DNA from: a virus
Virus record (IMG/VR): IMGVR_UViG_3300023174_000003
Location: 15,792 to 79,791 of that record
Strand: one strand, 5' to 3'
Length of the DNA stretch: 64,000 bases
The notes under the pieces are model-generated. The model saw only the letters and a list, made by a program, of their open reading frames with translations, did not search any database and had not been told where the DNA came from. Each line of letters opens with the position of its first letter. The first letter of the stretch is position 1. This document shows, piece after piece, positions 20,911 to 40,344 of this stretch. Position numbers and translations under genes: made by a program.

Positions 20911-21024
20911 TTAAGCAAACTGTGATTTGATTTTGTTTAAAGCCCAAGTAATAGCAATAGCACTTACCATAAGTAATAGGTCTTTGCAAACAGAACAAAC
21001 AATAGGAAACAAGAAGTCAAACAT
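20911..21024 (-). CDS. 37-aa hydrophobic peptide
   Basis: MFDFLFPIVCSVCKDLLLMVSAIAITWALNKIKSQFA*, directly downstream of a pseudoknot leader. Confidence 0.55.
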   Translation of the reverse strand: MFDFLFPIVCSVCKDLLLMVSAIAITWALNKIKSQFA

Positions 21025-21045
21025 TGGAGTAAGTAATGAGTGGAT

Positions 21046-21071
21046 AACAGTTTAACGTCTTGTTTAGGACG
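21046..21071 (-). ncRNA. leader pseudoknot family A, copy 1
   Basis: CGTC-CTAAACAA-GACG-TTAAAC-TGTT. Confidence 0.65.
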
Positions 21072-21081
21072 ATAAATACTT

Positions 21082-22017
21082 TTAAGTTGTTTTGTAAGAA
21101 AGTTGAGGAAGACTGGTGCCAGGGAATGGAACAAACCCTGCATTTAGCATAGCGTCAAACAGATCCCATGCATCATCTGCAGTGTAGTGTTCCTGTGGTT
21201 TGTACGTACGCCAGTGCGACATAGGTGCCATAGATCCCGACTTGGTATACAAGACAAGGAACCGACCCTTTGACTTATGGTCTTCTGGTGGAGCATACCA
21301 CCAAGCTGCAGCGTTATCAGGAGCAGACCCTCTGTACTGATCACGTACCTCAGAGCGTTTAACCAATAGCTCACGATACTTCTTGAACCAAGTTAAATGA
21401 ATGCACCACGGCTTATAGTCTTGGATCTCTTGCTGGAACTCAGACAGGTCTGTTAGCTGCCGCTGGAATGAACCACAAGAACAATAAGGTTCTTTGACTT
21501 TTTGTTGTGCAGTAACTTCTTCTAGATCAGAGTCCATATCTACTTCCTCATCAGGATCATAGAATCCTTCTGGTGCAATCAAGTGGCCAAGATCTGTATG
21601 CTCACTTTGCAACATAGCCTTAAGCTTGTCTTTACTCTTAAGGTAAATGAACTTATCAATCCATTCTCTTTGGAGTAACGCTTGACCAGTCTTGTGACTT
21701 AGCTGGTGTTGATAATGCCAACCTTTTAGCATTACGTAAGAGTTGTTATGCCAGATACCAGGACCTCTATAGTTAGGACCAAGGTATGCAAAGAAGTTTT
21801 TAAGACGACCAGTAAATTGTTGGTGTGCATTAATTACACTTTGCTTAGGCACTAATAGCTCAGTGCCATCTTGATGTACTACAACAATATTGTTATCACG
21901 TAGATAGATCCCACTTACAGTGGTCTCATCAAACTCTGGTAGTGCACGTCTAATATTGCTAATAGAATAGATTTGTTTTTGTGCAGAATTGAATTGGTCT
22001 TGAATTAGATTGTTCAT
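21082..22017 (-). CDS. SWIM-type Zn-finger protein
   Basis: YCSCGSF...PWCIH (CxC..CxH). Confidence 0.65.
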   Translation of the reverse strand: MNNLIQDQFNSAQKQIYSISNIRRALPEFDETTVSGIYLRDNNIVVVHQDGTELLVPKQSVINAHQQFTGRLKNFFAYLGPNYRGPGIWHNNSYVMLKGWHYQHQLSHKTGQALLQREWIDKFIYLKSKDKLKAMLQSEHTDLGHLIAPEGFYDPDEEVDMDSDLEEVTAQQKVKEPYCSCGSFQRQLTDLSEFQQEIQDYKPWCIHLTWFKKYRELLVKRSEVRDQYRGSAPDNAAAWWYAPPEDHKSKGRFLVLYTKSGSMAPMSHWRTYKPQEHYTADDAWDLFDAMLNAGFVPFPGTSLPQLSYKTT

Positions 22018-22038
22018 TGGTTAAAATTGAGTTGATGA

Positions 22039-22236
22039 TTAGATGAACAGGTCGTCCTGCTCTGCCGGAATCTTAGCAGAGCTAGGGGCAGAGTCGTAGG
22101 CCCTCTTACCAATTCTTAATAAACCATAGGCAAGCATCCCCCACGTAACAGGGTTAGCAAGTGATGCTGCAAGGAGTGTTCCCCCTACGGCATAGGGTGC
22201 CGTGTGTTTGATAGCAGCTTTTAGTTTTGTGTTCAT
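22039..22236 (-). CDS. small membrane-associated hypothetical protein
   Basis: Hydrophobic core. Confidence 0.5.
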   Translation of the reverse strand: MNTKLKAAIKHTAPYAVGGTLLAASLANPVTWGMLAYGLLRIGKRAYDSAPSSAKIPAEQDDLFI

Positions 22237-22268
22237 GGTGGTAGCATTGAGCAAAGTTGTTCAGGCTT

Positions 22269-22529
22269 ATGGAAATCAAAGTCATGCCCTTAAGTAAATT
22301 AGAACTTGACCCAGGGTTAGGTGATTTGTTCTGGAAAGAAAAAGTACAACGAGAGATTAACGAGAATACCTCAGTCAATGAACTAAGACAGTACGCATCT
22401 CTGTTGTTGTCTCTTGCAGTACAACGTCAAGGAATAATAAAAGGACTTGCAAAAGAATTGCTCACTATCAAACATCTATTGATAGATGATAGTGAGCTTG
22501 CCAATCCTGAGATTACACCAGAGGGTTAG
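22269..22529 (+). CDS. NblA-like (phycobilisome degradation) protein, tentative
   Basis: Two-helix pattern LGDLFWKEKVQREI..SVNELRQYASLLLSLAVQRQGIIKGL; lone plus-strand gene in the minus arm. Confidence 0.4.
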   Translation: MEIKVMPLSKLELDPGLGDLFWKEKVQREINENTSVNELRQYASLLLSLAVQRQGIIKGLAKELLTIKHLLIDDSELANPEITPEG

Positions 22530-23020
22530 ATGAGTGAATCATCTATTTTTAAATACTTATTACGATATAAAGAATTATGTATTTTTAAATATTTAGTTAC
22601 GGTATAAGTACAACAACCCATTTCAGCTGCAACATTAACACGAGATAAACCTTGAGATTTAAGTCTTAAAATTTTTTCTTGTTGTTCATTGGTTAATTTC
22701 CAAGGATGTTGACCAAGTTTTGCACGATTGCGGTCATGCATATCTTTAATATTATCTGTTTGAGTTCCAGGCAATAAATGCAATGGGTTGCAACAAGATC
22801 TATTATCACAAGTATGCCGAATAATAATCTTTGGAGTTAATGCAATATTATAATGATGCTCATAACTCCAGCGATGTGCAAGCATTGCTTTTTGGTTGCG
22901 TTTTGGATAACCATACCCATCTTTATGCCAGCGTTTACCTATGTACGGCCAACAAGAATTAAGACCCCCGAAGGGGTCAATCATTGCTAGCAAACTAATA
23001 GAGTTGTTTGCTATTGTCAT
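22526..23020 (-). CDS. free-standing HNH homing endonuclease with C-terminal HTH
   Basis: CWPY..GYG..AHRWSY..RHTCDNRSCCNPLHL..GTQTDNIKDM. Confidence 0.9.
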   Translation of the reverse strand: MTIANNSISLLAMIDPFGGLNSCWPYIGKRWHKDGYGYPKRNQKAMLAHRWSYEHHYNIALTPKIIIRHTCDNRSCCNPLHLLPGTQTDNIKDMHDRNRAKLGQHPWKLTNEQQEKILRLKSQGLSRVNVAAEMGCCTYTVTKYLKIHNSLYRNKYLKIDDSLI

Positions 23021-24090
23021 TAGATTAATCCATCATCCTCTCCAGTAACGGGATCCCTGGCACTAGGCAAAGCAGTTACATCAACTTCTTTGGTGTTACG
23101 TAGTTCAGGTAGTATCTCTACTCCCTCTCGTATTCCATAGGCACCACCAAGCTTTGCAGCATCCTGCTTAGCATGTTGATTGATATAGTCCTGGAACATT
23201 ACCTGGTACTTCCAAGTTGATTCCCGATCTTCATCAGGAATACTCATTGCATTTAATGATTCAACGGCGGCTTCTTGTGTGCTGTAATCAGGGATATCAA
23301 ACCCTTCAATAGCACATATCTCAACGTTATTAGCGCCGCGCATGTCATTAACAAGCTGAGGTGCAAATACTGTTGTTGCATAAAACTTCTCGTTAAACAT
23401 CAGTGGAATCTCAGAGTCAAGTGCCTTGCTCAAACACTTAGACATCTCCTTCTCATACAACTTAATCTTCTCGGCTGCATCAGTACCATTAAGTCCTTTT
23501 AAGGTAAGGACCATAGGTAGCTTATGTGCCCGTTGATTTTCTGTAGTAAGGATAAAGATTAAGTATTTGGTACGTACACTGTACTTACGTTTGTACATCT
23601 CGCCTTTACTGTTAGCAAGATCAGCAGCAACCTTGTCATTATCCCAGAGGGATTTGACTTGATCGTTGTCAAACGTACCAATTGTTTGCCTCATCCCTGT
23701 GGTTTCCTCAACCATGAGGGGAGAACGTAGAAGGACTTGAACTCTAGGCTGAGTGAAATTGAGTCCTTCTTCAATTGAAGTATTGGGAGCCATACCGAAA
23801 GTCTGCTTGTAGTTCCAGATAACAGAACCCTTAGCAAATTGATCTTCAGTTGCGCTCCATCCGCAAGTATCCAGGTCTGATATCCGCACGAACCAACCTC
23901 TTGTCTTAGATTTGTTGAGGGGTTGGATTGTGACGAAGTTCTGGTATCCTGAAACAAATTCTTTAGATTGAAATAACGCAAAAGATTCCAAGCCACGTGT
24001 TGCAATAGCAGAAGTTTTTTTCATAGCCATGGTCGAGGTTAGTTTCGTAGTAGGTGAGTTGGTCGTGGTGTCAAACAAAGTGCTAGTCAT
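23020..24090 (-). CDS. conserved cyanobacterial/phage protein (DUF5895-like), possibly ssDNA annealing
   Basis: Located next to SSB; PRVQVL.RSPL, YLIFIL..AHKLPMVLTLKG, FAPQL; start inferred from leader spacing. Confidence 0.55.
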   Translation of the reverse strand: MTSTLFDTTTNSPTTKLTSTMAMKKTSAIATRGLESFALFQSKEFVSGYQNFVTIQPLNKSKTRGWFVRISDLDTCGWSATEDQFAKGSVIWNYKQTFGMAPNTSIEEGLNFTQPRVQVLLRSPLMVEETTGMRQTIGTFDNDQVKSLWDNDKVAADLANSKGEMYKRKYSVRTKYLIFILTTENQRAHKLPMVLTLKGLNGTDAAEKIKLYEKEMSKCLSKALDSEIPLMFNEKFYATTVFAPQLVNDMRGANNVEICAIEGFDIPDYSTQEAAVESLNAMSIPDEDRESTWKYQVMFQDYINQHAKQDAAKLGGAYGIREGVEILPELRNTKEVDVTALPSARDPVTGEDDGLI

Positions 24091-24110
24091 TTGAGTAGCG
24101 AGGTTGGACA

Positions 24111-24139
24111 CAGGCAGTTTAGCGTCATGCCTGAGGACG
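24111..24139 (-). ncRNA. leader pseudoknot family A, copy 2
   Basis: CGTC-CTCAGGCAT-GACG-CTAAAC-TGCCTG. Confidence 0.65.
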
Positions 24140-24158
24140 GGCCAGCTATCTTAACAAT

Positions 24159-24959
24159 TCAGAAAGGTGCGTTGGCATCGTTGGAGTCAAAGCGCCCAGG
24201 TAGATCAGGCAAGTTGTTACCTACGTTCTGTCCCCAGGGCTCAGCAATTTCATCAGCAGTCTTACCACCCCATAGGCTTTGAGGTGCATCAGATGAGGTT
24301 GTGGTCTGTGCTTTGATACCACCAGAAGACTCTTGGACCTTGGGTGCTAGTGTCATTGATACCAACTGGATCTTGGTATTAGATTTACGTTCTTTAGTTT
24401 CTTTATCTAACCAAGAATCAGTAATCAATCTTCCCTGGATCGTAAGCCCAGTTCCTTTCCTTGTCATGTTTGCTAGTAGTTCAGCTTGATTAAATCTGTC
24501 AGTAGCTGAGTTAATAGCATAGAAGTTAAACAGGTCAGCTTGACCTTTACCAGTGCTAACAGATAGTGATTGATTAACAATCATTAAACCTTCTGCAGTT
24601 GTTCTGAATGAACGTTCATCTTCTTGGTTAATATCTTTTACACAGCGACCACTAAGGATAACTGTATTTAAGATAGGGAATGATTCATTAACAATAGCTA
24701 TTACGCCACCATGTAATGAGAATGTGCGTGACTCTAAATCATGACGTAGCTTTGCACCATGGATATAGATGTGTGATCCCTTAGGAGTCTTTAGAAAACG
24801 CTCTGAACTTTTACCGTAGACATTTAGTTCAATAGCCGTTGCCGACTTATTGCCTACTGGAGGTAGTAGTACAGGACAACGTACGGCTGTATTAGTAGCC
24901 GATATGTAAACCTCAGTTGGTTCTTGAGTTGTTTGTGCGCAAAGACTTGCAAAGTTCAT
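24159..24959 (-). CDS. ssb: single-stranded DNA-binding protein with tandem OB folds
   Basis: LNTVILSGR, RKGTGLTIQGRL.TDSWLDKET.ERKS; acidic tail ending NAPF; N-terminal half repeats the OB pattern. Confidence 0.8.
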   Translation of the reverse strand: MNFASLCAQTTQEPTEVYISATNTAVRCPVLLPPVGNKSATAIELNVYGKSSERFLKTPKGSHIYIHGAKLRHDLESRTFSLHGGVIAIVNESFPILNTVILSGRCVKDINQEDERSFRTTAEGLMIVNQSLSVSTGKGQADLFNFYAINSATDRFNQAELLANMTRKGTGLTIQGRLITDSWLDKETKERKSNTKIQLVSMTLAPKVQESSGGIKAQTTTSSDAPQSLWGGKTADEIAEPWGQNVGNNLPDLPGRFDSNDANAPF

Positions 24960-24980
24960 GGAATTAAAAAGAAAAGTGGA

Positions 24981-25007
24981 AGACAGTTTAACGTCATGCC
25001 TAGGACG
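24981..25007 (-). ncRNA. leader pseudoknot family A, copy 3
   Basis: CGTC-CTAGGCAT-GACG-TTAAAC-TGTCT. Confidence 0.65.
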
Positions 25008-25012
25008 GATCC

Positions 25013-27050: not shown

Positions 27051-27143
27051 GGAGGTTAAGACTAATAATCAAGGTGTTTTCCTGGTACTCCCCCAGGGGT
27101 CTGGGGGAAGCACAAGAACATCTAAATGATAACCAGTTTTATT

Positions 27144-28757: not shown

Positions 28758-29241
28758 TGTACTCTCCTACTTTTGCATAACATGCACAATCTTTTCCATC
28801 AAGCTCAGTGAATCCCATGGTGCACTTACGTTCCCAGTGAACACAGCCTGCTGAATAACAACGTGATACTTTATATATTTTTGTTCCATCTTTCTTTTTC
28901 ATTTTATCTTTTGTCCATAAAACATTACGGACTATCTTACCTACAGTAGAACGATGGATGCCTAGCTCAACAGCTAGTGCCTTTTGATTCTCACCATTAC
29001 TTACGCGTTCTCTAATTTGTGTAGCTAACTCAAATGTAAGTGGTGAATATTGTCTAGGCATTTTATATTCTTCTGGCAAATAACCAATAGTCTGATGTGT
29101 TTCCCCTGGTAATTGATAAGTAGAAAAACGTTGTTGACAGTAAGCACATAGTCGTGATCTCATAATGACACCACTAGAATGATGGTTGGCACGTAGTGTT
29201 GTGCAGTGATCGTGATCACAGCAAGGACATTTAATAGTCAT
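28744..29241 (-). CDS. NrdR-like Zn ribbon + HTH protein
   Basis: CPCC..RSRLCAYCQQRFSTY; QKALAVELGIHRSTV. Confidence 0.6.
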   Translation of the reverse strand: MTIKCPCCDHDHCTTLRANHHSSGVIMRSRLCAYCQQRFSTYQLPGETHQTIGYLPEEYKMPRQYSPLTFELATQIRERVSNGENQKALAVELGIHRSTVGKIVRNVLWTKDKMKKKDGTKIYKVSRCYSAGCVHWERKCTMGFTELDGKDCACYAKVGEYSEVS

Positions 29242-29917: not shown

Positions 29918-30095
29918 GGACGGTGGCCTCATATCCTTCAGCCATTAGCGATGCTGACAATGCCATTGCTAATTGCTTGGTGTACCGCTTTGTGCCGCCA
30001 GCGACCATATCGGTCACGGTCCAGCGTGTGTGGTTTGTCCAGACGACAATGCGCTCATTGCCTTTCTGAAAGAAGACTGATCGGGGCTTACTCAT
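29910..30095 (-). CDS. hypothetical protein (GC-rich module)
   Basis: MSKPRSVFF, start/stop overlapped with neighbours. Confidence 0.55.
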   Translation of the reverse strand: MSKPRSVFFQKGNERIVVWTNHTRWTVTDMVAGGTKRYTKQLAMALSASLMAEGYEATVHD

Positions 30096-30423
30096 TGGTG
30101 GTCTCGGGAATGGGTTGGTACTGTGGCAGCCATTGGCCGTGCTTGTCGGTAAAGCCAGCCTCATACAGGAACTGTTTAGCGGCGATGGCGTCACCGGCCA
30201 TAGCACGTTCCATCAGGGTTGGAGCGGTAATGGCGTCTGCCATGTCTTCAAGGGTGCTGGCTGGAACGGCATAGAACGATTCCATGTCGTCGTATTGGGC
30301 CTCGGTATCGGCTAGGTGGCGCAGAACAGCGGCAATGCCGTGATGAATGCTGTATCCCTCGTAAGAGCTGGCAGCTTGCTCAAACTCGTCAACTAGGCGT
30401 TGGGCGCGAGAGTCGCTAGTCAC
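30088..30423 (-). CDS. hypothetical protein (GC-rich module)
   Basis: 111 aa, coupled. Confidence 0.6.
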   Translation of the reverse strand: MTSDSRAQRLVDEFEQAASSYEGYSIHHGIAAVLRHLADTEAQYDDMESFYAVPASTLEDMADAITAPTLMERAMAGDAIAAKQFLYEAGFTDKHGQWLPQYQPIPETTNE

Positions 30424-30887
30424 GGGGCCTCGGGGATGTATAGGGCGTTGGCTGGTAGCCAGTGGGTGTAGTCATACATCTCAGCTCTTGTTCTAGTTCG
30501 GATGTAGATCCAACGCCACATCTGTCCATCGTTATCCCATAACCAACAGTAACCATCTTTGTTAACATCTTTTGGACCGGGCAATCTGCTGTCAAATGGA
30601 ATAGGAAAAAACTCATCCGTGGGCTCCACCGGATCCTCAGTCATGGCTGCTCCCCAGCGGAGATGATTGGTGATCTTGTTGCGACGTTTCTGCGTCTGCC
30701 AGACGAGCGTGAGGTAAGCGTTTATGACAGAAGCGGCAAGTAGGCGATCTTTCATGTCAAAGCAAGCATCTTTTGATGCGTACCTGAGAGCGTGCTCCAA
30801 GTCAATAAGTCTGTCTCCAGGGATGGGCCACGCTGTTCCGTCAAAGTGAACGAACGGGCTACCATCGGGAATGGTGATGTCAGTCAT
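30420..30887 (-). CDS. hypothetical protein; apparent fusion of two modules
   Basis: Internal MTEDPVEPTDE; C-terminal RLPGP.D..G.CW..THWLPANAL. Confidence 0.6.
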   Translation of the reverse strand: MTDITIPDGSPFVHFDGTAWPIPGDRLIDLEHALRYASKDACFDMKDRLLAASVINAYLTLVWQTQKRRNKITNHLRWGAAMTEDPVEPTDEFFPIPFDSRLPGPKDVNKDGYCWLWDNDGQMWRWIYIRTRTRAEMYDYTHWLPANALYIPEAP

Positions 30888-31411
30888 TAGATCTCCTCTC
30901 CAGTGTTGTTGGCAAGTGAACTATCTGGTTTGACCGGATAGTTGCCCCAGCGGGCAAGTACAGCGCGGGCGTAGTCGAGGGCGCCTGTGTTCAAGCTGAC
31001 ACGGAATATGCCAGGCTTGACTTGGCCGCCAGTTGCATCACTGCAGACTTTGGCTGCGTAGCTGAACTCATCCAGCATTGTTTCGGGCATTAGTTTTAGC
31101 AGCTCTTCATCAGTCGGCACCACCGGCTCGGGCAACTTGTAAGGCAAACTTACAGGTCGCTTGGCCAAGTTGTAACAACGGCGGCCAAAATCCACAAGAT
31201 CGCTGTCAAATGTGGGACCGTGGATTGACCAAGCCAATCGCAACAGCTCTTCATCAGTCGGCACCACCGGCTCGGGTTGGGCTAGGACAGCGCGGGCATC
31301 CTCGACGGACTGAAACAGCGCCTGTTCATGGTGGTCGGGCCACTTCCCGCCATGTTCTTCATACGCCTCCACCAGTCGCTGTAGTTCGGAGCGGTAGTCG
31401 GGGTTAGTCAT
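30887..31411 (-). CDS. hypothetical protein with duplicated PEPVVPTDEELL
   Basis: Exact 33-bp repeat at 31100-31132 and 31244-31276. Confidence 0.65.
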   Translation of the reverse strand: MTNPDYRSELQRLVEAYEEHGGKWPDHHEQALFQSVEDARAVLAQPEPVVPTDEELLRLAWSIHGPTFDSDLVDFGRRCYNLAKRPVSLPYKLPEPVVPTDEELLKLMPETMLDEFSYAAKVCSDATGGQVKPGIFRVSLNTGALDYARAVLARWGNYPVKPDSSLANNTGEEI

Positions 31412-31646
31412 TGAGGGCCTCCAGTGCGCGGCGGATGGTGTCCATTGCAGTGTCGTCCAAGTAAGGCTTGTTGCTGTTGACCAATGCCAGCGCCTGCTCC
31501 TTCAAACTCGGCGGCTCAGCCAGGGCGGCGCGGGCGCGGCACAAAAGAGGACCGCACTCTTGATAAGTCAGGGGTAGTGATTTAACTACTACTTTTGCCT
31601 CTAGCGTTGCGCAAAGCTCAGCGCACAGGGCGCGGAAGTCAGTCAT
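31404..31646 (-). CDS. hypothetical protein (GC-rich module)
   Basis: MTDFRALCAEL..SLKEQAL..DTIRRALEALND. Confidence 0.65.
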   Translation of the reverse strand: MTDFRALCAELCATLEAKVVVKSLPLTYQECGPLLCRARAALAEPPSLKEQALALVNSNKPYLDDTAMDTIRRALEALND

Positions 31647-31677
31647 TGAGGGCCTCCAGTGCGCGGCGGATGGTGTC
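31406..31677. repeat. 37-bp exact direct repeat (31406-31442 and 31641-31677)
   Basis: AGTCATTGAGGGCCTCCAGTGCGCGGCGGATGGTGTC, spanning gene junctions. Confidence 0.9.
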
Positions 31678-31995
31678 GTAGGTGGTGTCGTCAATCTTGT
31701 CTCTGTCGTAAGCATCAGCAAGCTCGTGAAGCGCCTGCTCCTTCAAGTTTGGCGGCTTGGGGCGGCGGGCGGCGCGGAGCCTGTCGGACGCCGGCTCATA
31801 ACCTGGGTGGTAGATGTGCTTGTCAATCCACTCACAACACGCCTCCAGCTCCTGGTCGGCACCCCATTGGGAAGCTTTAGTAATAGCTTCTCTAAATGTT
31901 TTTGAATTTAGGAGGTTGTGAGTAGGATCAGTCTTAAACTGATTCCAGATTGAATCCACCAGCTCAGGCGGTGGGGTGATTGGGTCGTTAGTCAT
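31639..31995 (-). CDS. hypothetical protein (GC-rich module)
   Basis: PITPPPELV..WGADQELEACCEW..LRAARRPKPP.LKEQAL..DTIRRALEALND. Confidence 0.65.
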   Translation of the reverse strand: MTNDPITPPPELVDSIWNQFKTDPTHNLLNSKTFREAITKASQWGADQELEACCEWIDKHIYHPGYEPASDRLRAARRPKPPNLKEQALHELADAYDRDKIDDTTYDTIRRALEALND

Positions 31996-32026
31996 TAGAT
32001 TTATTTGATTTGAGTAAGGTGGATAA

Positions 32027-32060
32027 GCTGGACTTACATAAGTAAATACTTAATGCCAGC
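32027..32060 (-). ncRNA. leader hairpin family C, copy 1
   Basis: GCTGG-CA-TTAAGT/ACTTAT-GTAAGT-CCAGC. Confidence 0.5.
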
Positions 32061-32716: not shown

Positions 32717-32791
32717 GGTGTTGAATGAATGGACAAGGATAGTGTAGTGGAACTAAGGCCAGTGGTTAGCTGACCTTAGCTTTATTTAATG

Positions 32792-33157: not shown

Positions 33158-33179
33158 GAGTTAAGTGCAGTGGAATGTC

Positions 33180-33212
33180 TGGGGCTTACGTCAGGTTGGC
33201 GCTGACTGCCCA
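33180..33212 (-). ncRNA. leader hairpin family C, copy 2
   Basis: TGGG-CA-GTCAG/CTGAC-GTAAGC-CCCA. Confidence 0.5.
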
Positions 33213-33220
33213 ATGGTTGG

Positions 33221-34947: not shown

Positions 34948-34976
34948 CAGGCAGTTTAACGTCATGCCTGAGGACG
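34948..34976 (-). ncRNA. leader pseudoknot family A, copy 5
   Basis: CGTC-CTCAGGCAT-GACG-TTAAAC-TGCCTG. Confidence 0.65.
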
Positions 34977-34981
34977 TGGAC

Positions 34982-35194
34982 CTAGTCGTATTCGATACCG
35001 AATTGCACCCGTTCTTGGTACGTAGTATGGAACTTGGTTAGCTTAGGTAAGCGCTTAGCAAATCCAAAGGCTAGGTATATGCGTCCCCGTGGTCCACGGA
35101 AGACAAGATACCAAGGCCTGAACTCAATAATGAATCCAATCATTCCGTTAGATCTCCGATAGGTCGACATCGATCCAGTCAATGTCTTGTTCAC
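34982..35194 (-). CDS. hypothetical protein (start uncertain)
   Basis: Fills the gap before a leader element. Confidence 0.4.
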   Translation of the reverse strand: MNKTLTGSMSTYRRSNGMIGFIIEFRPWYLVFRGPRGRIYLAFGFAKRLPKLTKFHTTYQERVQFGIEYD

Positions 35195-35429
35195 GTACCC
35201 ATGCTACTAACTCACTGAACGCAACTTTGTTATCAGTGGTTTCAAGTTTGTCTGGGTCAGTGGGAGGTTGGACCTCTACAACAAAGTTAGCATGGCATAG
35301 GCCAGGCTTGAACTCTGCTGGTTCCTCCCACGTGGCAGGACTTACCTGGATCCTATCATCAATCCATGCTTCCACATAAACGAAGTACTCGCCATCTAAT
35401 GGAATGACATCAATGTTCTCAATGATCAT
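35148..35429 (-). CDS. acidic hypothetical protein
   Basis: PATWEEPAEFKPGLC. Confidence 0.6.
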   Translation of the reverse strand: MIIENIDVIPLDGEYFVYVEAWIDDRIQVSPATWEEPAEFKPGLCHANFVVEVQPPTDPDKLETTDNKVAFSELVAWVREQDIDWIDVDLSEI

Positions 35430-35431
35430 GA

Positions 35432-35644
35432 TCAGACCTCCTGTAGTTGTTGTGTAGCCACAGCCACTGGCTGCTGAAACGCAGAGCCAGGACCATAGCG
35501 TTGGACTAGATCTGGGAATGCACCTAGGATACGTTGACGGTTAGTGGGATCAGCATACCGTAGTGCGTTGGCCATAGTACTGACGAACTTGCCGCCGTAC
35601 TTGGTCATGGTCTCGGTCATGTGATAAATCTCAGTGCTGGTCAT
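35432..35644 (-). CDS. hypothetical protein
   Basis: MTSTEIY..YGGKFV..ADPTNRQRILGAFP; start follows the leader. Confidence 0.65.
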   Translation of the reverse strand: MTSTEIYHMTETMTKYGGKFVSTMANALRYADPTNRQRILGAFPDLVQRYGPGSAFQQPVAVATQQLQEV

Positions 35645-35694
35645 GAGTTGAGTTGCGGTGGGACACAGGCAGTTTAACGTCATGCCTGAGGACG
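35640..35694 (-). repeat. 55-bp exact repeat (leader pseudoknot A copy 6 + spacer + ATG)
   Basis: Identical to 37026-37080. Confidence 0.9.
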
Positions 35695-35705
35695 GGTCAG
35701 CTTAG

Positions 35706-35942
35706 TTACAGAATCTTTATGTTGCGTTTGCTTAGGCCAGTACCAGGCAATCCAATGGATGCATGGACGCCTGACTCACGAGCATTCAGTGTGAGTTGCA
35801 ATGGACCTAACTGGAATGATTTAGAGAATGACTTGATGCCATTCTCCGTAATGTTGATACCATTCCAAGTCTTGTCAAAGTTGAACAATGATTTCTTGTG
35901 AGCCATCTTAGATACCTTCAATGCATGGGTGGATGTTGTCAT
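35706..35942 (-). CDS. DUF4236-like small basic protein (likely start 35906)
   Basis: KSFQLGPLQLTLN..SGVHASIGLPGTGLS. Confidence 0.55.
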   Translation of the reverse strand: MTTSTHALKVSKMAHKKSLFNFDKTWNGINITENGIKSFSKSFQLGPLQLTLNARESGVHASIGLPGTGLSKRNIKIL

Positions 35943-36111
35943 CGTTCATATTTGTCATGGTAAATTTTTCACCAGTGACAGGATCAATGAAGCCTCCAAC
36001 GAATCCGATCCCATTACGGTCAGCGGATTCTTTCATTAGTGCCACAAACCTCATCGCTTCAAGACGACGTAAGCTTGTGGCATCAGGCACAGTCAGATCA
36101 GAGTTAGACAT
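35908..36111 (-). CDS. hypothetical protein
   Basis: 67-aa ORF. Confidence 0.55.
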   Translation of the reverse strand: MSNSDLTVPDATSLRRLEAMRFVALMKESADRNGIGFVGGFIDPVTGEKFTMTNMNDDNIHPCIEGI

Positions 36112-36143
36112 TGGATGGGGAAGTTAAGGTTTGATTAATGAAC

Positions 36144-36452
36144 TTAGGATTTTACTAGATTCTGTTTGACATCCATACTAAATATCATGTCAGCATCAGT
36201 GGGATCTTCATATCCTGTAACATCGATAGGATCAATGTCAGGAAAGCAGACCGGCTGGTCGAATTCAACATTGACTAGTACCGTCAGATGTTCCTTGGAC
36301 AGGCTTACCCAATCTTCAGTCAACCAATTGATGGCATGTTGCTTGTTCACCAGATATACGGTGCGATCATGCCATACGTCATCGTTCTTGATCTTGTAAT
36401 CAATGATGGCACCGAAGTGTGTACCACCGATAGGCAGTGGGGCATTAGTCAT
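36144..36452 (-). CDS. hypothetical protein
   Basis: 102-aa acidic ORF. Confidence 0.55.
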   Translation of the reverse strand: MTNAPLPIGGTHFGAIIDYKIKNDDVWHDRTVYLVNKQHAINWLTEDWVSLSKEHLTVLVNVEFDQPVCFPDIDPIDVTGYEDPTDADMIFSMDVKQNLVKS

Positions 36453-36488
36453 TAGCTTTCGTGGTGATGGTGGACAGGGGTGAGGGGA

Positions 36489-36788
36489 CTATGCGAATGG
36501 CGTAAAGCCTGGTGCATCTATCAACTCTTGTAGTGTGCATACAGCATCTGCTGCTAGCTCACTGAACACAACCTTGTTATCAGTGACATATTCATTTGAC
36601 TGATCCTCTACTACTTCACATCCGCTATCTTCTAGCTCATCGCAGAACTCATCCCATGTCATGTGCTTGCCATAGACATGAGCGTATCTGCCCGTGGCAT
36701 CTGCCACTAATGCAACATAGTGATTCATTGTACTCATTTCAGGGGTGGTTGTACTCATTACTTGTGTAGCTCCTGGTGTTGTTGCCAA
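36489..36788 (-). CDS. acidic hypothetical protein
   Basis: ORF in the early arm; start uncertain. Confidence 0.55.
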   Translation of the reverse strand: MATTPGATQVMSTTTPEMSTMNHYVALVADATGRYAHVYGKHMTWDEFCDELEDSGCEVVEDQSNEYVTDNKVVFSELAADAVCTLQELIDAPGFTPFA

Positions 36789-37030
36789 TGGGCAGCATGA
36801 ATCTCTGCTGCTGTAACAGCGGACTCACCTCCGGTGTTGTCATAGAGATACTCAGGTGTTGGGTCATAGCCCGTCACCTCTTCTAATGCATCGATGCAGT
36901 CTGAGATAGTATCCAGCATCCACTGTGGTGCAGAATACATTTGGTCTTTGGCTTCCTCTTGTTTGAGGACAGCGTTCATCTTTTTGATCCAGCGTTCGCA
37001 TGCGCACTCTGGAGTCTTGTCTAAAGTCAT
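36758..37030 (-). CDS. hypothetical protein
   Basis: MTLDKTPEC..; start follows the leader. Confidence 0.6.
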   Translation of the reverse strand: MTLDKTPECACERWIKKMNAVLKQEEAKDQMYSAPQWMLDTISDCIDALEEVTGYDPTPEYLYDNTGGESAVTAAEIHAAHWQQHQELHK

Positions 37031-37080
37031 GAGTTGAGTTGCGGTGGGACACAGGCAGTTTAACGTCATGCCTGAGGACG
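37026..37080 (-). repeat. 55-bp exact repeat (leader pseudoknot A copy 7 + spacer + ATG)
   Basis: Identical to 35640-35694. Confidence 0.9.
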
Positions 37081-37153
37081 AGCTATTAGGTTTCAGTATT
37101 TTGTGGCATTTCAACATTTGTTGAAAGCCTATAGTAGTACTGATGTATTACCG

Positions 37154-37507
37154 TTAGATCATTCCTAAGAGTGACAGCCAGCTATCAGGGTGATCTGGTT
37201 CCACCTCATCGTAGGTAGGTGTCAGGCAAATGGAATCAAACGTCCATTCCTCTATGTCTTCCATTGTTGGCACCTCGTACCAACCAATGAGATCATCTTG
37301 TTCATCTTTGTAGTTACGTCCTTTGGGTATCCAATAGTACATGAGTACTCCCTTCTTATTCTTACGGACAGCACCGTTATACGGCAGCTGACCTTTCAGT
37401 GGATCCTGGAAGCAGCACTCGACAGGATATTGTTCCTGTCCATCTGCTTCTGTCAATGGCTCGTAGCCTAGTGCTGTGGCCATCTGTTGCTGTTCAGGTA
37501 ATAGCAT
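37154..37507 (-). CDS. hypothetical protein
   Basis: C-terminal EEWTFDSICLTP..VEPDHPDSWLSLLGMI. Confidence 0.65.
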   Translation of the reverse strand: MLLPEQQQMATALGYEPLTEADGQEQYPVECCFQDPLKGQLPYNGAVRKNKKGVLMYYWIPKGRNYKDEQDDLIGWYEVPTMEDIEEWTFDSICLTPTYDEVEPDHPDSWLSLLGMI

Positions 37508-37528
37508 GGTGTGAATGCGATTGGATGT

Positions 37529-37555
37529 CTGCGTTGTAAGGATGCGCAGCCCCCT
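37529..37555 (-). promoter_or_regulatory. leader element family D, copy 1
   Basis: AGGGGG-CTGCG-CATCCTTACAA-CGCAG. Confidence 0.6.
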
Positions 37556-37562
37556 GTTAATC

Positions 37563-37904
37563 TTATTTAAGTTGTTGTTTTCTGGTACGTGTACGTGGTA
37601 CCTTTGCTGGTGTAGCTACCGGCTCTGGTACATCTGCAACGTACTCTAGATTCCAGTTAGCAATAGTATCTATTGCATTAATAAACTTGCCACAATACTG
37701 TGTAAAGCTTATAACAAATTCTTCGCCGTGGTCAGCTTGCCACTGACGATAGGTCTTGATGCTCCACTGGACCACAGCAATGATTACTGCTGTGATAGTT
37801 ACCAGTGTCATAACAATGTTGTAGGCGACACGTCGCCAATTAACTTTCTGTATCTGTGTCAGTGCATCATCCACTGGTGGAAAGCTGTAGGTCATGTTAG
37901 TCAT
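37563..37904 (-). CDS. membrane-anchored hypothetical protein
   Basis: One transmembrane segment; likely start MTNMTYSF. Confidence 0.55.
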   Translation of the reverse strand: MTNMTYSFPPVDDALTQIQKVNWRRVAYNIVMTLVTITAVIIAVVQWSIKTYRQWQADHGEEFVISFTQYCGKFINAIDTIANWNLEYVADVPEPVATPAKVPRTRTRKQQLK

Positions 37905-38133
37905 GGTGAATCTCCTGTGGGTGTGATTGTAGTTGTGTGATGTCAATACCTGCGGCTGCCATTACGACAGTTGCAATAATAAATGTCATCAACACAAAGG
38001 TTGTGGCATCTAATACTTTGCCGAGCATTTTTGAGCTCAATACTTTTCTAAGCATTTTTAAGTGCATGATAGATTTGCGTTGGTACGAATCAAGTTCAAC
38101 GTAACGGCCTACAATTTTATGGTAGTTCTTCAT
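37897..38133 (-). CDS. hypothetical protein with C-terminal transmembrane segment
   Basis: Coupled ORF. Confidence 0.5.
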   Translation of the reverse strand: MKNYHKIVGRYVELDSYQRKSIMHLKMLRKVLSSKMLGKVLDATTFVLMTFIIATVVMAAAGIDITQLQSHPQEIHHD

Positions 38134-38327
38134 TACATTCCATATAGTATGTCACTGTCTTCGTCCTCGTTAATAAGCTCAAATTGAGACCACAAACGAT
38201 AAGTTTCTATAGTGTTTGCAATGCCGTGGGTGTGGCTTGCATATTTTCGTGCTTCATTTATATCGTTAAAACATGTATCAATGTTCTTGTCAACAGGGTG
38301 ATACACAATGTGAACGTAGTTAGCCAT
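38133..38327 (-). CDS. hypothetical protein
   Basis: Follows a family D leader. Confidence 0.55.
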   Translation of the reverse strand: MANYVHIVYHPVDKNIDTCFNDINEARKYASHTHGIANTIETYRLWSQFELINEDEDSDILYGM

Positions 38328-38354
38328 TAGATTCTCCGTTGTAGTTGTGAATGC

Positions 38355-38381
38355 CTGCGTTGTTAGGATGCGCAGCCCCCT
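38355..38381 (-). promoter_or_regulatory. leader element family D, copy 2
   Basis: AGGGGG-CTGCG-CATCCTAACAA-CGCAG. Confidence 0.6.
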
Positions 38382-38397
38382 CGTGTTAGATTAACTT

Positions 38398-38703
38398 GGG
38401 GTGAAGAAGAACCGTGTCAGCCCCTTCATACAAGGGAACCAGGATTTTTACGGTCTCTCCTGGTTGGTAACAGACGAGCTGTGCCACTGATCATGGGGCA
38501 GCTCCTCCCTTATCTTAATTCTTGCAGACATGTATAGGGTCAGGACGCAATAGTCCTTCAGCTCGTGCGGCGGGCGCCCTATGCCTGCTACAACTTTAGG
38601 TTCATCACGCCTAAAGAAGTTTGTTGGAACTCTTCTGAGTTCCTAGACGAGTCAACTCCTGGCCAGGAGGGTCAGCTGAACCCTCCAAAGCATAGCAGGT
38701 TTA
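38398..38703. ncRNA. candidate ~300-nt multi-domain structured RNA
   Basis: No ORF of 60 aa or more in the track; about nine stems, two multiloops and two possible loop-mediated pseudoknots. Confidence 0.6.
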
Positions 38704-38704
38704 A

Positions 38705-38959
38705 CTAATCTTCGATGCCATACTCCTGCTCATATTTAAGCAAGAGTGCGTTTCGGTCAACACACTTCTTGAGGAATTGTGCCAATGGATGCAAAGCATC
38801 CCACTCTAATGCACCGTCTTGCCACTGGAAGTACATCTCCAGTAGCTCGGTACGTTTCTGTTCAATAGACCAATCAACACAAGGGTGTTGAACAGTCGAG
38901 TCTCGCCTGGCAAGCAGACGTGCATCTTTTATGATGCGTTCAACCGTAGCACTGGTCAT
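38705..38959 (-). CDS. hypothetical protein
   Basis: MTSATVERIIKDARLLARRD; start follows a family B leader. Confidence 0.6.
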   Translation of the reverse strand: MTSATVERIIKDARLLARRDSTVQHPCVDWSIEQKRTELLEMYFQWQDGALEWDALHPLAQFLKKCVDRNALLLKYEQEYGIED

Positions 38960-38963
38960 GATT

Positions 38964-39040
38964 GTGAGTAAGCCACACTCAGTGTGTGGCAATAACTGGA
39001 CCAGGGTTTGCACCTGGTCACCCGCTTTAACGGATCAGCT
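38964..39040 (-). ncRNA. tRNA-like T-loop + pseudoknot element family B, copy 1
   Basis: AGCTG-ATCCGTTAAAGCGGGT-GACCAGG-TGCAAAC-CCTGGTC-CAGTT, then ATTGCCACACACTGAGTGTGGCTTACTCA. Confidence 0.6.
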
Positions 39041-39196
39041 TGCTTGACGCATCTCCACTAATAGCTCAACCAGTATCTGGTTGTAACTTTTACTAGATTC
39101 TTTGGAGTGATATTCTGCTATCACTTGTGCATCATCTAACTCTTTGTTGCTGAAGGTGCCCATAAACTTGAACAGTTGTTCGTAAGTAAGTGTCAT
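39035..39196 (-). CDS. 53-aa hypothetical protein
   Basis: MTLTYEQLFKFMGTFSNKELDDAQ..; bounded by family B elements. Confidence 0.55.
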   Translation of the reverse strand: MTLTYEQLFKFMGTFSNKELDDAQVIAEYHSKESSKSYNQILVELLVEMRQAS

Positions 39197-39205
39197 TAAA
39201 TTGAT

Positions 39206-39286
39206 GCTGTGCAGGTGCCCATCTCCTGCGGACTAGGCAATACTGAGTAGGGGATTCGATCCCCCGGCATCACGCCTGGTACTCAG
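39206..39286 (-). ncRNA. tRNA-like T-loop + pseudoknot element family B, copy 2
   Basis: CTGAGTA-CCA-GGCGTGATGCC-GGGGG-ATCGAAT-CCCC-TACTCAG, then TATTGCCTAGTCCGCAGGAGATGGGCACCTGC. Confidence 0.6.
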
Positions 39287-39453
39287 AACGGAATCTCATC
39301 AAACGACTCCACACATGAATCAGTAGCTGGATCATCAATGACCCAGCCTTCTTCCTCTGCTTCTGCTTCTAACACCCATTGAGGTGTGTTATTTGCTAAC
39401 CAGATATCATGAAGGAGTTGTTCTTGATGAATGTTGCTAGGTTGAATACGCAT
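39283..39453 (-). CDS. 56-aa acidic protein ending in SSB-tail-like FDEIPF
   Basis: MRIQPSNIHQEQLLHDIWLANNTPQWVLEAEAEEEGWVIDDPATDSCVESFDEIPF*. Confidence 0.6.
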   Translation of the reverse strand: MRIQPSNIHQEQLLHDIWLANNTPQWVLEAEAEEEGWVIDDPATDSCVESFDEIPF

Positions 39454-39463
39454 TTAACTGTGA

Positions 39464-39545
39464 GCTGTGCAGGTGCCCATCTCCTGCGGACTAGGCAATG
39501 ACTGTGGGAGGGTTTGCACCTCCCAACCCGCTTTAACGGATCAGC
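39464..39545 (-). ncRNA. tRNA-like T-loop + pseudoknot element family B, copy 3
   Basis: GCTG-ATCCGTTAAAGCGGGT-TGGGAGG-TGCAAAC-CCTCCCA-CAGT, then CATTGCCTAGTCCGCAGGAGATGGGCACCTGC. Confidence 0.6.
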
Positions 39546-39768
39546 AACCAAGCATCTCGTCCACGTAGGACTTGATGACTTGGAGTTGGTCTCGGTTAAG
39601 TGTCTGGCTACGGCCATACTCCAAAAGGTCAAGGACCTGGAGCATGACGCTTTCGCCAGCCTCTTCACGAGACGGTACGCCACACATGTCGAAGATCTCA
39701 TTACGAGACATCTCAGTGATGTCAACGCAATCGATCTTACGAACGGTGGCGATGGTGGTCTTAGTCAC
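39541..39768 (-). CDS. hypothetical protein
   Basis: 75 aa, GTG start, between family C and B elements. Confidence 0.6.
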   Translation of the reverse strand: MTKTTIATVRKIDCVDITEMSRNEIFDMCGVPSREEAGESVMLQVLDLLEYGRSQTLNRDQLQVIKSYVDEMLGC

Positions 39769-39788
39769 GGTGTTACTCCGTAGGTGAG

Positions 39789-39822
39789 CTTGGACTTACA
39801 CTGCTGAAGTGCAGCTGCCAAG
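39789..39822 (-). ncRNA. leader hairpin family C, copy 3
   Basis: CTTGG-CA-GCTGC/GCAGT-GTAAGT-CCAAG. Confidence 0.5.
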
Positions 39823-39847
39823 ATCGTGACTGACCACCGAGTTGTCT

Positions 39848-39872
39848 GCTGCGTTTAACGTCCAGCTCGACG
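39848..39872 (-). ncRNA. leader pseudoknot family A, divergent copy 8
   Basis: CGTC-GAGCTG-GACG-TTAAACG-CAGC. Confidence 0.5.
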
Positions 39873-40023
39873 CCTAATCTATTGGTGAATCTAGAACCTA
39901 ACTCTCGTACATGAACGAAAGCTACCGATTCTAGCACCACCTAACCTAGGATGATACGTATTCGTATTATAAATGTTACAATACGTGTTAATATCACCAC
40001 AGGTTAGTGGTGTGTGGCAACAG

Positions 40024-40293
40024 TCAGTTAACTTGCTTAGCACTGGCAATCGCTTTGCCATTCTTCACAAGTACTGATAACTTATACTCAGGCGAGCAGC
40101 TATCTTCTAGGCAATCACTTGGGTCGTAACACTCAACTGCAATTGCATTGTGGAGATCCACAAGCCATTGCTTAACGTTCGTATCAAACTGACCCAAGAC
40201 TTCAAGGTGAATGCTCACCTTCTTGCCTCTCATCAGATACTCTGCTGCCTGGTCGCAACGAGCAAAATACACTTCAGCTTGTGATAGTTGCAT
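40024..40293 (-). CDS. hypothetical protein, first gene of the early arm
   Basis: 89 aa, downstream of a family D leader. Confidence 0.6.
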   Translation of the reverse strand: MQLSQAEVYFARCDQAAEYLMRGKKVSIHLEVLGQFDTNVKQWLVDLHNAIAVECYDPSDCLEDSCSPEYKLSVLVKNGKAIASAKQVN

Positions 40294-40317
40294 GATTTGA
40301 ATGCGAGTGTGTACAAC

Positions 40318-40344
40318 CTGCGTTGCAAGGATGCGCAGCCCCCT
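40318..40344 (-). promoter_or_regulatory. leader element family D, copy 3
   Basis: AGGGGG-CTGCG-CATCCTTGCAA-CGCAG. Confidence 0.6.

Follow-up and report, generated by a model that had tools for sequence, protein, structure and literature searches.

Conserved RNA folds of five families, one of them coremin-like, at cistron boundaries in the early arm of an S-EIV1-like cyanophage

Coremin (xrRNA-C) and its Watson-Crick variant (xrRNA-WCC) come from beny-, cucumo-, and other eukaryotic RNA viruses (PMC6546385, PMC10520033, PMC10321173). Both stall Xrn1 and ribosomes in experiments, and the Watson-Crick variant was obtained from a frameshift screen in E. coli colonies (PMC10520033, PMC10321173). 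The coremin spacer A16-A20 is essential (PMC6546385), and coremin-type Xrn1 resistance in vitro strictly requires a second hairpin right after this spacer (PMC6546385, PMC10321173). Coremin-type knots can also stimulate -1 frameshifting, and for their effects on ribosomes the Watson-Crick type manages without the second hairpin (PMC10321173). The structure of the coremin fold was still unsolved in the 2023 papers (PMC10520033, PMC10321173). Two other described systems are the t-elements of plant mitochondria, which provide a comparison for tRNA-like elements (PMC1920247), and the leader pseudoknot of T4 gene 32 (mentioned in PMC10690425).

In this work, we analyzed a window (i.e., the whole stretch of DNA considered here) of 64 kb from the complete 79.8-kb genome of an uncultured S-EIV1-like cyanophage, in which the minus-strand early/replication arm occupies 21.0-40.35 kb. 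We found 19 elements of five families (A, eight; B, three; C, three; D, two; and E, three) and four strong hairpins. All elements are on the minus strand, which is the sense strand, in gaps separating a stop codon from the next start. The sequence-only reading had proposed at least 17 elements of four families and single hairpins at about 19876, 27086, and 32752; these exist, but the count of elements and families has risen and a fourth hairpin at 22.07 kb is added. For family A, a covariance model (R1) run on the whole 64 kb recovered seven full copies (E 7e-11 to 9e-7), and all remaining matches had E>=1. Family E was located by descriptor scan. The features are as follows.

21045..21071, minus strand: A1, H-type pseudoknot, 20 nt ahead of a 37-codon ORF (ATG 21024); R1 43.8 bits, E 9e-10
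24112..24139, minus strand: A2, pseudoknot before the DUF5895 gene (ATG 24090; gene assigned by Pfam); R1 32.7 bits
24981..25007, minus strand: A3, pseudoknot with one G-U pair in stem 2; DNA polymerase stop 5 nt before, SSB start (ATG 24959) 21 nt after; R1 47.7 bits
27950..27976, minus strand: A4, pseudoknot before the GP88-family gene (ATG 27926); R1 47.9 bits
34949..34976, minus strand: A5, pseudoknot; stop 5 nt before, PcfJ-like gene (ATG 34924) 24 nt after; R1 38.5 bits
35667..35694, minus strand: A6, pseudoknot before a 70-aa ORF (ATG 35644); R1 38.9 bits
37053..37080, minus strand: A7, pseudoknot before a 90-aa ORF (ATG 37030); R1 38.4 bits
39848..39872, minus strand: A8, 6-nt-loop variant CGUC GAGCUG GACG UUAAAC GCAGC; partial R1 match
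37529..37555, minus strand: B1, AGGG-GG-CUGCG-CA-UCCU-UACAA-CGCAG, 21 nt before ATG 37507; R2 56 bits
38355..38381, minus strand: B2, family B pseudoknot, 27 nt before ATG 38327
40318..40344, minus strand: B3, family B pseudoknot, 24 nt before ATG 40293; the first element of the arm
38992..39039, minus strand: C1, tRNA-elbow mimic composed of a closing stem (holding the UGA stop of ORF 39196-39035), a CCG-UUAAAG-CGG hairpin, and a 7-bp arm with a UGCAAAC loop; fold z-score -3.2, family covariation
39243..39286, minus strand: C2, tRNA-like, with a 7-bp acceptor-like stem and a GGGGG-AUCGAAU-CCCCU arm, including the UGA stop of ORF 39453-39283; no ARAGORN tRNA
39500..39545, minus strand: C3, tRNA-elbow mimic with the arm fully exchanged relative to C1, including the UGA stop of ORF 39711-39541; fold, family covariation
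39206..39241, minus strand: D1, UGCCUA...GCAGG-AGAUGGGCA-CCUGC, after C2
39464..39499, minus strand: D2, 36-nt unit after C3, 100% identical to D1
33179..33213, minus strand: E1, 21 nt before ATG 33157 (outer stem, CA, inner hairpin, GUAAGC, outer stem); orthologous copies in contigs L061 and L090
32027..32060, minus strand: E2, 31 nt before ATG 31995; orthologous copy in L090
39789..39822, minus strand: E3, with a GGAG word and then a GUG start (about 39764) downstream; arrangement repeated in L443, L453, L469, L500, and L553
19876..19918, minus strand: strong intergenic hairpin without U-tract; -18.3 kcal/mol, z-score -4.2
22059..22082, minus strand: intergenic hairpin before the gene at ATG 22017; -16.2 kcal/mol, z-score -2.6
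27080..27117, minus strand: G+C-rich hairpin between the GP88 and DNA polymerase genes, without U-tract; z-score -4.3, -31.8 kcal/mol over an 86-nt stretch
32751..32781, minus strand: 12-bp hairpin before ATG 32716; -16.3 kcal/mol, z-score -4.5
40503..40520: bidirectional intrinsic terminator, splitting the first small gene (40759-40547) from the arm beginning at B3

For most elements in the window, the gap from the stop codon to the element is 5-21 nt. Between the structure's end and the start codon lie 20-24 nt in each of the seven full A copies and 21-31 nt in the B and E copies. Thus, the placement just past a stop and ahead of a start holds, as does the absence from the plus-strand late arm, where there are zero copies of A, B, C, D, and E; none was found in the other minus-strand block (3-17 kb) either. 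The further proposal that a G-poor leader without Shine-Dalgarno (SD) sequence is specific to this arm was wrong, as this trait is genome-wide: G is 15.8% in the arm and 16.6% in the late arm, and SD-like words occur upstream of 9/40 and 7/22 genes, respectively. Among these traits, C-richness (26.5% vs. 13.2%) is the sole contrast between the arms. What survives of the suggested expression grammar is a set of modular, sense-strand RNA structures at cistron boundaries. The order of modules in tandem differs among relatives (C+D, C+hairpin, C+A-variant, and B+D), and a 6-nt-loop variant similar to A8 lies downstream of a family C element in one further contig (L458). No case of orthologous genes preceded by different families was found.

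Sigma-70-type promoter-like sites (-35/-10 with the right spacing) number 37 in the arm compared with 45.2 expected, and none is at an element. Terminator-like sites show no excess (21 vs. 15.8 expected) and none coincides with an element; with an intrinsic terminator taken as a G+C-rich hairpin and a U-tract after it, 40503-40520 is the lone convincing one of the arm. Across the window, ARAGORN detected zero tRNAs and Rfam 15 gave a single match at gathering score, a group I intron. Over 37.4-40.4 kb, Rfam matches were at chance level only, with no tRNA match at E up to 5. Rfam contains no match to A, B, C, or E.

Folding of single A, B, D, or E copies gave minimum free energies (MFE) no better than those of shuffles; the case for the folds rests on covariation. 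Families A, B, C, and E extend beyond this phage, occurring in many further viral contigs with compensatory base changes. Families A and B differ in sequence but are compact H-type pseudoknots with a common architecture, in which stem 1 (4 bp) is followed by a loop (2 nt), stem 2 (5 bp), a junction (1-2 nt), and an A-rich loop (5-6 nt). Among 142 family A copies, 97.9% of cells are paired, five of the nine pairs changed on both sides, and zero shuffles reached the observed score; stem 2 is 97.4% paired, with four of its five pairs covarying. In 140 distinct copies, GUC and GAC are invariant and the outer pair covaries (CG, UG, AU, GC, and UA). For family B (three copies in the window vs. zero expected by chance), 99.4% are paired and six pairs changed on both sides, and the pattern has a perfect 5-bp stem in 27/88 matches compared with about 0.65 expected. 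Family C shows compensatory changes in 10/15 pairs, and its consensus from 40 copies has a 4-bp closing stem and a 7-bp arm with a UGCAAAC loop after GG/CC. Family E has three copies in the window vs. 0.03 expected in shuffles, and 59 matches across contigs vs. four in shuffled controls. We conclude that these are genuine folds, specific to one strand and conserved, and that they form five families of modules.

Among these families, A invites comparison with coremin. The phage motif GUCC...GACGUUAAACU matches coremin GUCCGAAGACGUUAAACUAC, and the hairpin-1 stem is likewise (C)GUC/GAC(G); a C-G pair closes the loop, which begins with a pyrimidine and ends with A-D. The spacer GUUAAACU contains the mutationally essential A16-U19, and A15-U19 is common to both. 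In 36 A copies found without the exact 15-mer, GUCC, GAC, and AAACU are constant and U13 and U14 vary, mirroring the mutational tolerance of coremin (PMC6546385); A15-U19 is constant in these copies, and position 20, which pairs with the loop, is G in 32 and A in four. Both are viral and lie in intergenic or untranslated locations. As in xrRNA-WCC, stem 2 is Watson-Crick and loop 1 pairs with the 3' part of the spacer, but the register is shifted by one, starting at U19 rather than C18. Unlike coremin, the family A loop has 8-9 nt (six in A8), CUNNNCAU, with no G at position 2, and reads C-U/C-NNN-C/U-A-U instead of following the coremin rule YGAD/YGNNAD; stem 2 has 5 bp from U19, extending past the spacer; and A20 is usually G. 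The second hairpin directly after the spacer, which characterizes coremin and xrRNA-WCC, is absent from family A, and the 30 nt after stem 2 are less structured than controls (mean MFE -2.6 vs. -3.5 kcal/mol). Furthermore, coremin occurs in eukaryotic RNA viruses, whereas family A is carried by dsDNA phages and bacteria, which have no Xrn1.

It is quite possible, though a little short of probable, that the modules divide a long transcript into stable units, acting as cleavage signals and as roadblocks to decay or to ribosomes. Transcription of the arm probably yields one or a few long sense RNAs with small autonomous folds at cistron boundaries. RNase P and RNase Z, the tRNA-processing enzymes, may cut at the C elements, after which the A and B knots would lie near new 5' ends as one-way mechanical roadblocks, keeping 5'-to-3' decay (RNase J, or RNase E scanning from the 5' end) off the downstream cistron. 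Given their spacing (at least 5 nt from the preceding stop and 20-31 nt to the following start), the knots would never have to be unfolded by ribosomes. The outcome would be separately stabilized message units with unstructured, C/A-rich, SD-poor leaders. In favor of this reading are the covariation and the coremin likeness described above, the spacing of knots from stops and starts, the copies found just before tRNA genes, the lack of enrichment of promoter- or terminator-like sites in the arm, and the A copies of S-EIV1. RNase J is encoded by both cyanobacterial genomes examined (Richelia and Lyngbya) and exceeds the family cut-off in 17/26 A-carrying bacterial genomes, compared with 8/14 controls; it is missing in a complete Zixibacteria chromosome and a 1.57-Mb Omnitrophota contig, both A-carrying. 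A simple exonuclease-block model is weakened because the second hairpin required in coremin is absent, because 9/26 A-carrying bacterial genomes are without a clear RNase J, and because G-poor, SD-poor leaders occur in both arms. Also counting against the roadblock reading are the divergent loop, the usual G at position 20, the position of only 1/276 A copies before a tRNA, and the unexceptional folding energies of single A, B, D, and E copies.

Alternatively, the knots may act on ribosomes rather than nucleases, as entry-channel roadblocks at the stop or as platforms for SD-less initiation, which we consider rather unlikely. They could insulate cistrons by blocking sliding or re-initiation of terminated ribosomes, or serve as a docking/standby platform on the unstructured C/A-rich leader. 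Coremin-type knots do stall ribosomes, and the Watson-Crick type does so without the second hairpin, as in the phage motif (PMC10321173). The stop-to-knot gap of family A has a sharp lower bound with its mode at 5 nt (34/111), which is the spacer of frameshift/readthrough knots. The start-codon distance is constant in the window, knot-to-start gaps in general peak at 20-30 nt, and viral leaders past the A knot have 9.5% G and an SD-like word in 10/57. In bacterial chromosomes, the A knot extends over the stop codon of a conserved ORF of 18-25 aa, an arrangement expected of a leader-peptide device. However, tRNA genes follow 2-6 nt after one A copy and several E copies, and some copies lie before other non-coding structures, such that the element is not specific to translation; bacterial copies often have a normal SD (21/37); termination needs no ribosome entry into the knot, so a block there would have no obvious effect; and in the late arm of this phage, genes start with neither SD nor knot. 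A less probable explanation is that the modules are sites for phage or host RNA-binding proteins, either operators similar to those of T4 gp32/RegA or sites of a specific endoribonuclease. This would suit the strong conservation of loops (UUAAAC in A, CAUCCU..CAA in B, UUAAAG and UGCAAAC in C, and GUAAGY in E) next to stems that vary freely, and the A copy before the SSB gene here and in S-EIV1, which recalls the gene 32 leader. Yet family A occurs in phages and in bacteria of many phyla, which makes a phage-specific protein unlikely, its downstream genes are mutually unrelated, and its conserved nucleotides are those holding the coremin fold together without protein.

We find it very unlikely that these are DNA-level elements, i.e., promoters for a phage or modified host polymerase or recombination linkers, with the RNA folds incidental. 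The elements do precede genes and are all oriented one way, A6 and A7 have the knot and the entire leader in common, the D1/D2 identity is as after recent duplication or gene conversion, and an AT-rich TAnnnT-like word stands before every B copy of the window. Against this, the G-U/U-G pairs fit the sense strand only, being A-C mismatches on the opposite strand; compensatory changes keep pairing and not sequence; no RNA polymerase gene was found among the large ORFs; promoter-like sites are not enriched; and family A is also found inside bacterial operons, a differing context. Even harder to credit is that A, or A and B, sense a ligand in the manner of a riboswitch-like pseudoknot or cleave themselves as a small ribozyme. 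In size and fold, A and B resemble preQ1-I and SAM-II, which are small pseudoknot aptamers. Among genes downstream of bacterial A copies, one theme recurs (Rrf2 in 14/110, and also hemerythrin, FMN reductase, redoxin, and rubredoxin), and many bacterial copies are followed by an intrinsic terminator. Nevertheless, a phage genome has 7-9 copies, placed ahead of genes unrelated to one another, neither the start codon nor an SD is overlapped by an expression platform, and family A has no Rfam match even at E up to 10.

Returning to the modules as cleavage signals and roadblocks, a broader version, which we hold as tentative and doubtful, is that phages and some bacteria own a nuclease- and ribosome-resistant knot class built on the coremin fold, and that this class, together with tRNA-elbow mimics and at least three further families, forms a portable punctuation code cutting the early transcript into protected messages. 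If true, prokaryotes would gain their first class of exoribonuclease-resistant RNA, and viruses at large would share, or have reinvented, a single RNA fold. If the knots do obstruct decay enzymes or ribosomes, such RNA elements have no known precedent in bacteria and phages, and they would also explain how neighboring genes in long, terminator-free, SD-poor phage operons come to be expressed at different levels. The natural variation informs the coremin fold: copies number in the hundreds, stem 2 is clearly Watson-Crick, and another family has the same architecture. Modules this short (25-50 nt) and portable may be suited as insulators or stabilizers in synthetic operons. The question is directly testable in the cultured phage S-EIV1 (Synechococcus host), which has almost no DNA identity to the present phage and carries A copies before equivalent genes, i.e., in unannotated gaps before the SSB gene and before genes at the GP88, DUF5895, and PcfJ positions.

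Compared with other known systems, family A resembles the T4 gene 32 leader in that an H-type pseudoknot and then an unstructured leader precede a phage SSB gene, but here one knot type is found before at least seven unrelated genes per genome, with no sign of autoregulation. Similar to t-elements and to the tRNA punctuation of mitochondrial transcripts, family C places a tRNA-like fold between the protein genes of a polycistronic unit. Its acceptor-like closing stem stacks on a hairpin resembling a T-arm (11-13 bp in total), and its 7-nt loop is closed by G-C. Unlike t-elements, it has a T-arm of 7 bp, a conserved CCG-UUAAAG-CGG hairpin at the place of the D-arm, and the upstream stop codon inside the closing stem; it has neither an anticodon arm nor a CCA. 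RNase III processing hairpins separate genes of bacteriophage T7, and 5' stabilizers are known from the ompA leader and SP82. The modules described here are likewise conserved intergenic RNA structures, predicted to parse and stabilize long phage transcripts, but they are pseudoknots and tRNA mimics rather than long irregular RNase III hairpins, and they form several sequence-defined families common to very many unrelated phages.

By searching for repeats and sequence patterns and by applying two covariance models (R1 for family A and R2 for family B), we located 19 copies of RNA elements in five families between the genes of the minus-strand arm, together with four strong hairpins that each lack a U-tract. 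This confirms the sequence-only reading that families of RNA elements separate these genes. All elements fall within 21.0-40.35 kb and are oriented in sense with the minus-strand genes. Family A has eight copies; seven are full R1 matches (E 7e-11 to 9e-7), and the remaining hits across the 64 kb all have E >=1. Families B, C (tRNA-like), D (identical units), and E have three, three, two, and three copies, and only 0.03 copies of E were expected from shuffles. Most elements begin 5-21 nt past the previous stop codon, in line with the earlier description that most sit just after a stop. From the end of the structure to the start codon, there are 20-24 nt in each of the seven full A copies; for B and E, this distance is 21-31 nt. 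No copy of A to E was found in scans of the late plus-strand arm and the other minus-strand block of the window, in line with the claimed absence from the late arm. The copies with a variant loop or of family E are as follows:

39872-39848, minus strand: family A variant with a 6-nt loop
33179-33213, minus strand: family E copy
32027-32060, minus strand: family E copy
39789-39822, minus strand: family E copy

The earlier description of an ACTC-rich, G-poor leader without a Shine-Dalgarno sequence needs correction: G-poverty and scarce Shine-Dalgarno words are common to both arms, and only the C-richness is arm-specific. Rfam searches of the whole window (at the gathering threshold) and of two sub-regions (in E-value mode) gave no match to the elements, and ARAGORN detected no tRNA genes in the window. 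Thermodynamic folding of single A, B, D, and E elements was not significant, so stability alone does not support these families.

The viral record is complete (79,791 bp, with direct terminal repeats), the window being its bases 15792-79791. Among named phages, only Synechococcus phage S-EIV1 is near to it at the DNA level, with 79% identity across 0.9 kb. The minus-strand block from ~17.4 to 40.35 kb encodes a family A DNA polymerase, SSB, a GP88-family protein, DUF5895, a PcfJ-like protein, and numerous small ORFs, and the late genes occupy the plus strand from 40.85 kb onwards. Based on this gene content, with replication-type genes on one strand and late genes on the other, "early/middle arm" is a fair label. 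A G+C-rich island at 30000-32000 (55% vs. about 40%) carries Shine-Dalgarno-bearing starts and looks like a recently acquired gene pair that was duplicated internally. Separately, ~320 nt without an ORF lie between the second B copy and the gene ending at 38705 (38382-38705, minus strand). Other features of the window are as follows:

17389-18057, minus strand: auxiliary gene adjoining the arm, protein annotated as "ferredoxin" (PHROG 3704, E 1e-110)
16444-16995, minus strand: auxiliary gene adjoining the arm, ferritin-like protein
31403/31638, 31100/31244, 30952/31279, and 31489/31730: direct repeats inside the G+C-rich island
58983-59226, plus strand: Rfam group I intron (88.7 bits; gathering score 50)

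Family A reads (C/U)GUC-CU-NNNCA-U-GAC(G)-UUAAAC-UGNNN on the sense strand. One exact 15-mer taken from it matched >116 IMG/VR contigs, with GUCC upstream in 122 of 138 occurrences and complementary triplets flanking the core. The 142 copies gathered with R1 support both helices of an H-type pseudoknot: 97.9% of cells are paired, two-sided changes occur in five of the nine pairs, G-U and U-G pairs are compatible with the sense strand only, and none of the shuffles scored as high as the copies themselves. A promoter for a phage polymerase was rejected as an explanation, since the G-U pairs are strand-specific, the scanned ORFs include no RNA polymerase gene, and A also occurs in bacterial operons. 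No Rfam family matches A, and the motif may be included in a ~10,000-entry catalogue of unnamed viral RNA candidates. When a 41-nt element was searched against named phages with BLAST, which is insensitive for this purpose, believable intergenic hits were found only in S-EIV1, Nostoc phage NMeng1, and Moorella phage MTATph1.

Family B is located as A is, between stop and start. A free-stem pattern gave 88 IMG/VR occurrences. In 27 of them the 5-bp stem is perfect, where about 0.65 were expected, and five different stems are represented. In the variants found with R2, the 5' AGGG pairs with the loop UCCU, and replacements of A-U by C-G or G-C, and of G-C by A-U, keep the pairing. On this evidence, B forms an H-type pseudoknot with stem and loop lengths as in A and a different sequence; its stem 1 is supported by few variant sequences only.

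The pattern of family C, with 19 specified bases, matched >119 viral contigs. Its consensus from 40 copies consists of a 4-6 bp closing stem, a CCG-UUAAAG-CGG hairpin, and a 7-bp arm with a UGCAAAC loop closed by G-C, and 10 of the 15 pairs have compensatory changes. In the window, three successive small genes, of 56, 56, and 53 codons, have their terminal UGA inside the closing stem of a C element. AUUGCC comes after C and opens a D unit in some cases and a plain hairpin in others; other contigs have an A-like knot after C instead, or D after B. Thus, the modules combine in different orders. Both possible helices of D appear, by eye, to covary among copies beside C elements. A classical H-type pseudoknot was rejected for D, as the lack of a nucleotide between the 3' strands makes stacked helices sterically impossible, and the two helices may be alternative conformers. 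Family E has an outer stem CYNGG, CA, a variable hairpin, (U)GUAAGY, and CCNRG. With 59 distinct matches in 4.3 Mb of related loci vs. 4 in shuffles, E is a widespread, uncatalogued element. Several E copies lie 2-6 nt upstream of tRNA genes (loci with E: L520, L542, L026, L103, L036, and L050), and one A copy lies 2 nt upstream of a tRNA gene.

The order of families varies among related contigs. In S-EIV1 (KJ410740), the equivalent genes are preceded by family A, located in unannotated gaps upstream of the SSB gene and the genes at the GP88, DUF5895, and PcfJ positions; family B has one weak match at most. The six A copies of S-EIV1 are as follows:

11888-11926: family A
15138-15176: family A
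16482-16520: family A
19571-19609: family A
24778-24816: family A
28981-29019: family A

In bacteria, the family A motif was found in >119 genome contigs vs. about 9 estimated by chance, with carriers in Omnitrophota, Planctomycetes, Bacillota, Deltaproteobacteria, Cyanobacteria, Nitrospirae, and others. The bacterial knot lies after the stop of a very small conserved ORF of 18-25 aa, or overlaps that stop. The ORF ends in AHCKEGC (L124-L242, several phyla) and has the consensus M..(K/R)(Y/W/F)M(L/I)(R/P)x(V/I)AHC(K/S)EGC. Synonymous third-position changes show that this ORF is coding, and an NCBIfam scan of it gave no match. Downstream of the knot is an intrinsic terminator or a gene for Rrf2, hemerythrin, FMN-reductase, or redoxin, and the ORF and knot may form a leader-peptide plus roadblock device. 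Examples of the ORF and knot in bacterial contigs are as follows:

L149, 6852-6926: ORF and knot
L130, 6349-6420: ORF and knot
L162, 7503-7556: ORF and knot

Of 26 bacterial genomes with family A, only 17 had an RNase J above its family cut-off, so a strict dependence on this enzyme is not supported; both cyanobacterial genomes tested encode it.

Taken together, the five families are sense-strand RNA structures under selection at cistron boundaries. With the combination of elements in different orders, these findings partly support the earlier interpretation. As scans of the arm showed no enrichment of promoter-like or terminator-like sites, we infer long transcripts. We tentatively favor a processing-plus-roadblock model, in which the arm would be transcribed as long RNAs, C elements would be sites of cleavage, and A and B knots would provide protection or insulation.

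Among 222 copies of A, the gap from stop to knot has a sharp lower limit with a mode of 5 nt, and the gap from knot to next start peaks at 20-30 nt. From established ribosome geometry, the point 5 nt past a stop codon in the A site would be where mRNA enters the ribosome. At such spacing, neither terminating nor initiating ribosomes would have to unfold the knot. In viral contigs, the leader 3' of the knot is unstructured (9.5% G, 30% C). An action on ribosomes, for which the missing second hairpin and a spacing like that of frameshift elements speak, is a rather unlikely explanation. That the elements are protein operators is improbable, DNA-level roles are very improbable, and we give even less credence to ligand sensing or ribozymes. 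As a separate observation, leaders between the A knot and the PcfJ-like start contain a doubled word YNNGAACUYA (e.g., CUACGAACUCACUACGAACUUACC; L008, L013, L014, L039, L058, L066, and others).

Among known systems, family C is most closely paralleled by the t-element or tRNA punctuation found in mitochondrial transcripts, which is cleaved by RNase P and RNase Z (PMC1920247). Family A resembles coremin, in which Xrn1 stalling needs hairpin 1 (GUC/GAC), the loop (YGAD), the spacer A16-A20, and a second hairpin (PMC6546385); in the Watson-Crick variant, the loop pairs with the spacer, and this variant additionally causes ribosomes to stall and promotes frameshifting (PMC10321173). In 36 phage A copies without the exact search word, GUCC, GAC, and AAACU are invariant and U13 and U14 variable, and family A variation follows the tolerance pattern of the coremin mutational work. 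Unlike in coremin, the loop of family A is long (CUNNNCAU), stem 2 has 5 bp and begins at U19, position 20 is G rather than A, and a second hairpin was looked for 3' of the knot and is absent. In the literature searched, no paper connects coremin with phages. The elements relate to known kinds, namely, coremin-type knots and tRNA-like punctuation. New here are the joint element inventory of this genome, the architecture that B shares with A, E as a widespread family that also occurs ahead of tRNAs, the 5-nt lower bound of the stop-to-knot gap and the missing second hairpin, the RNase J test, the conserved small ORF in bacteria, and the cultured phage S-EIV1 as an experimental system for the knots.
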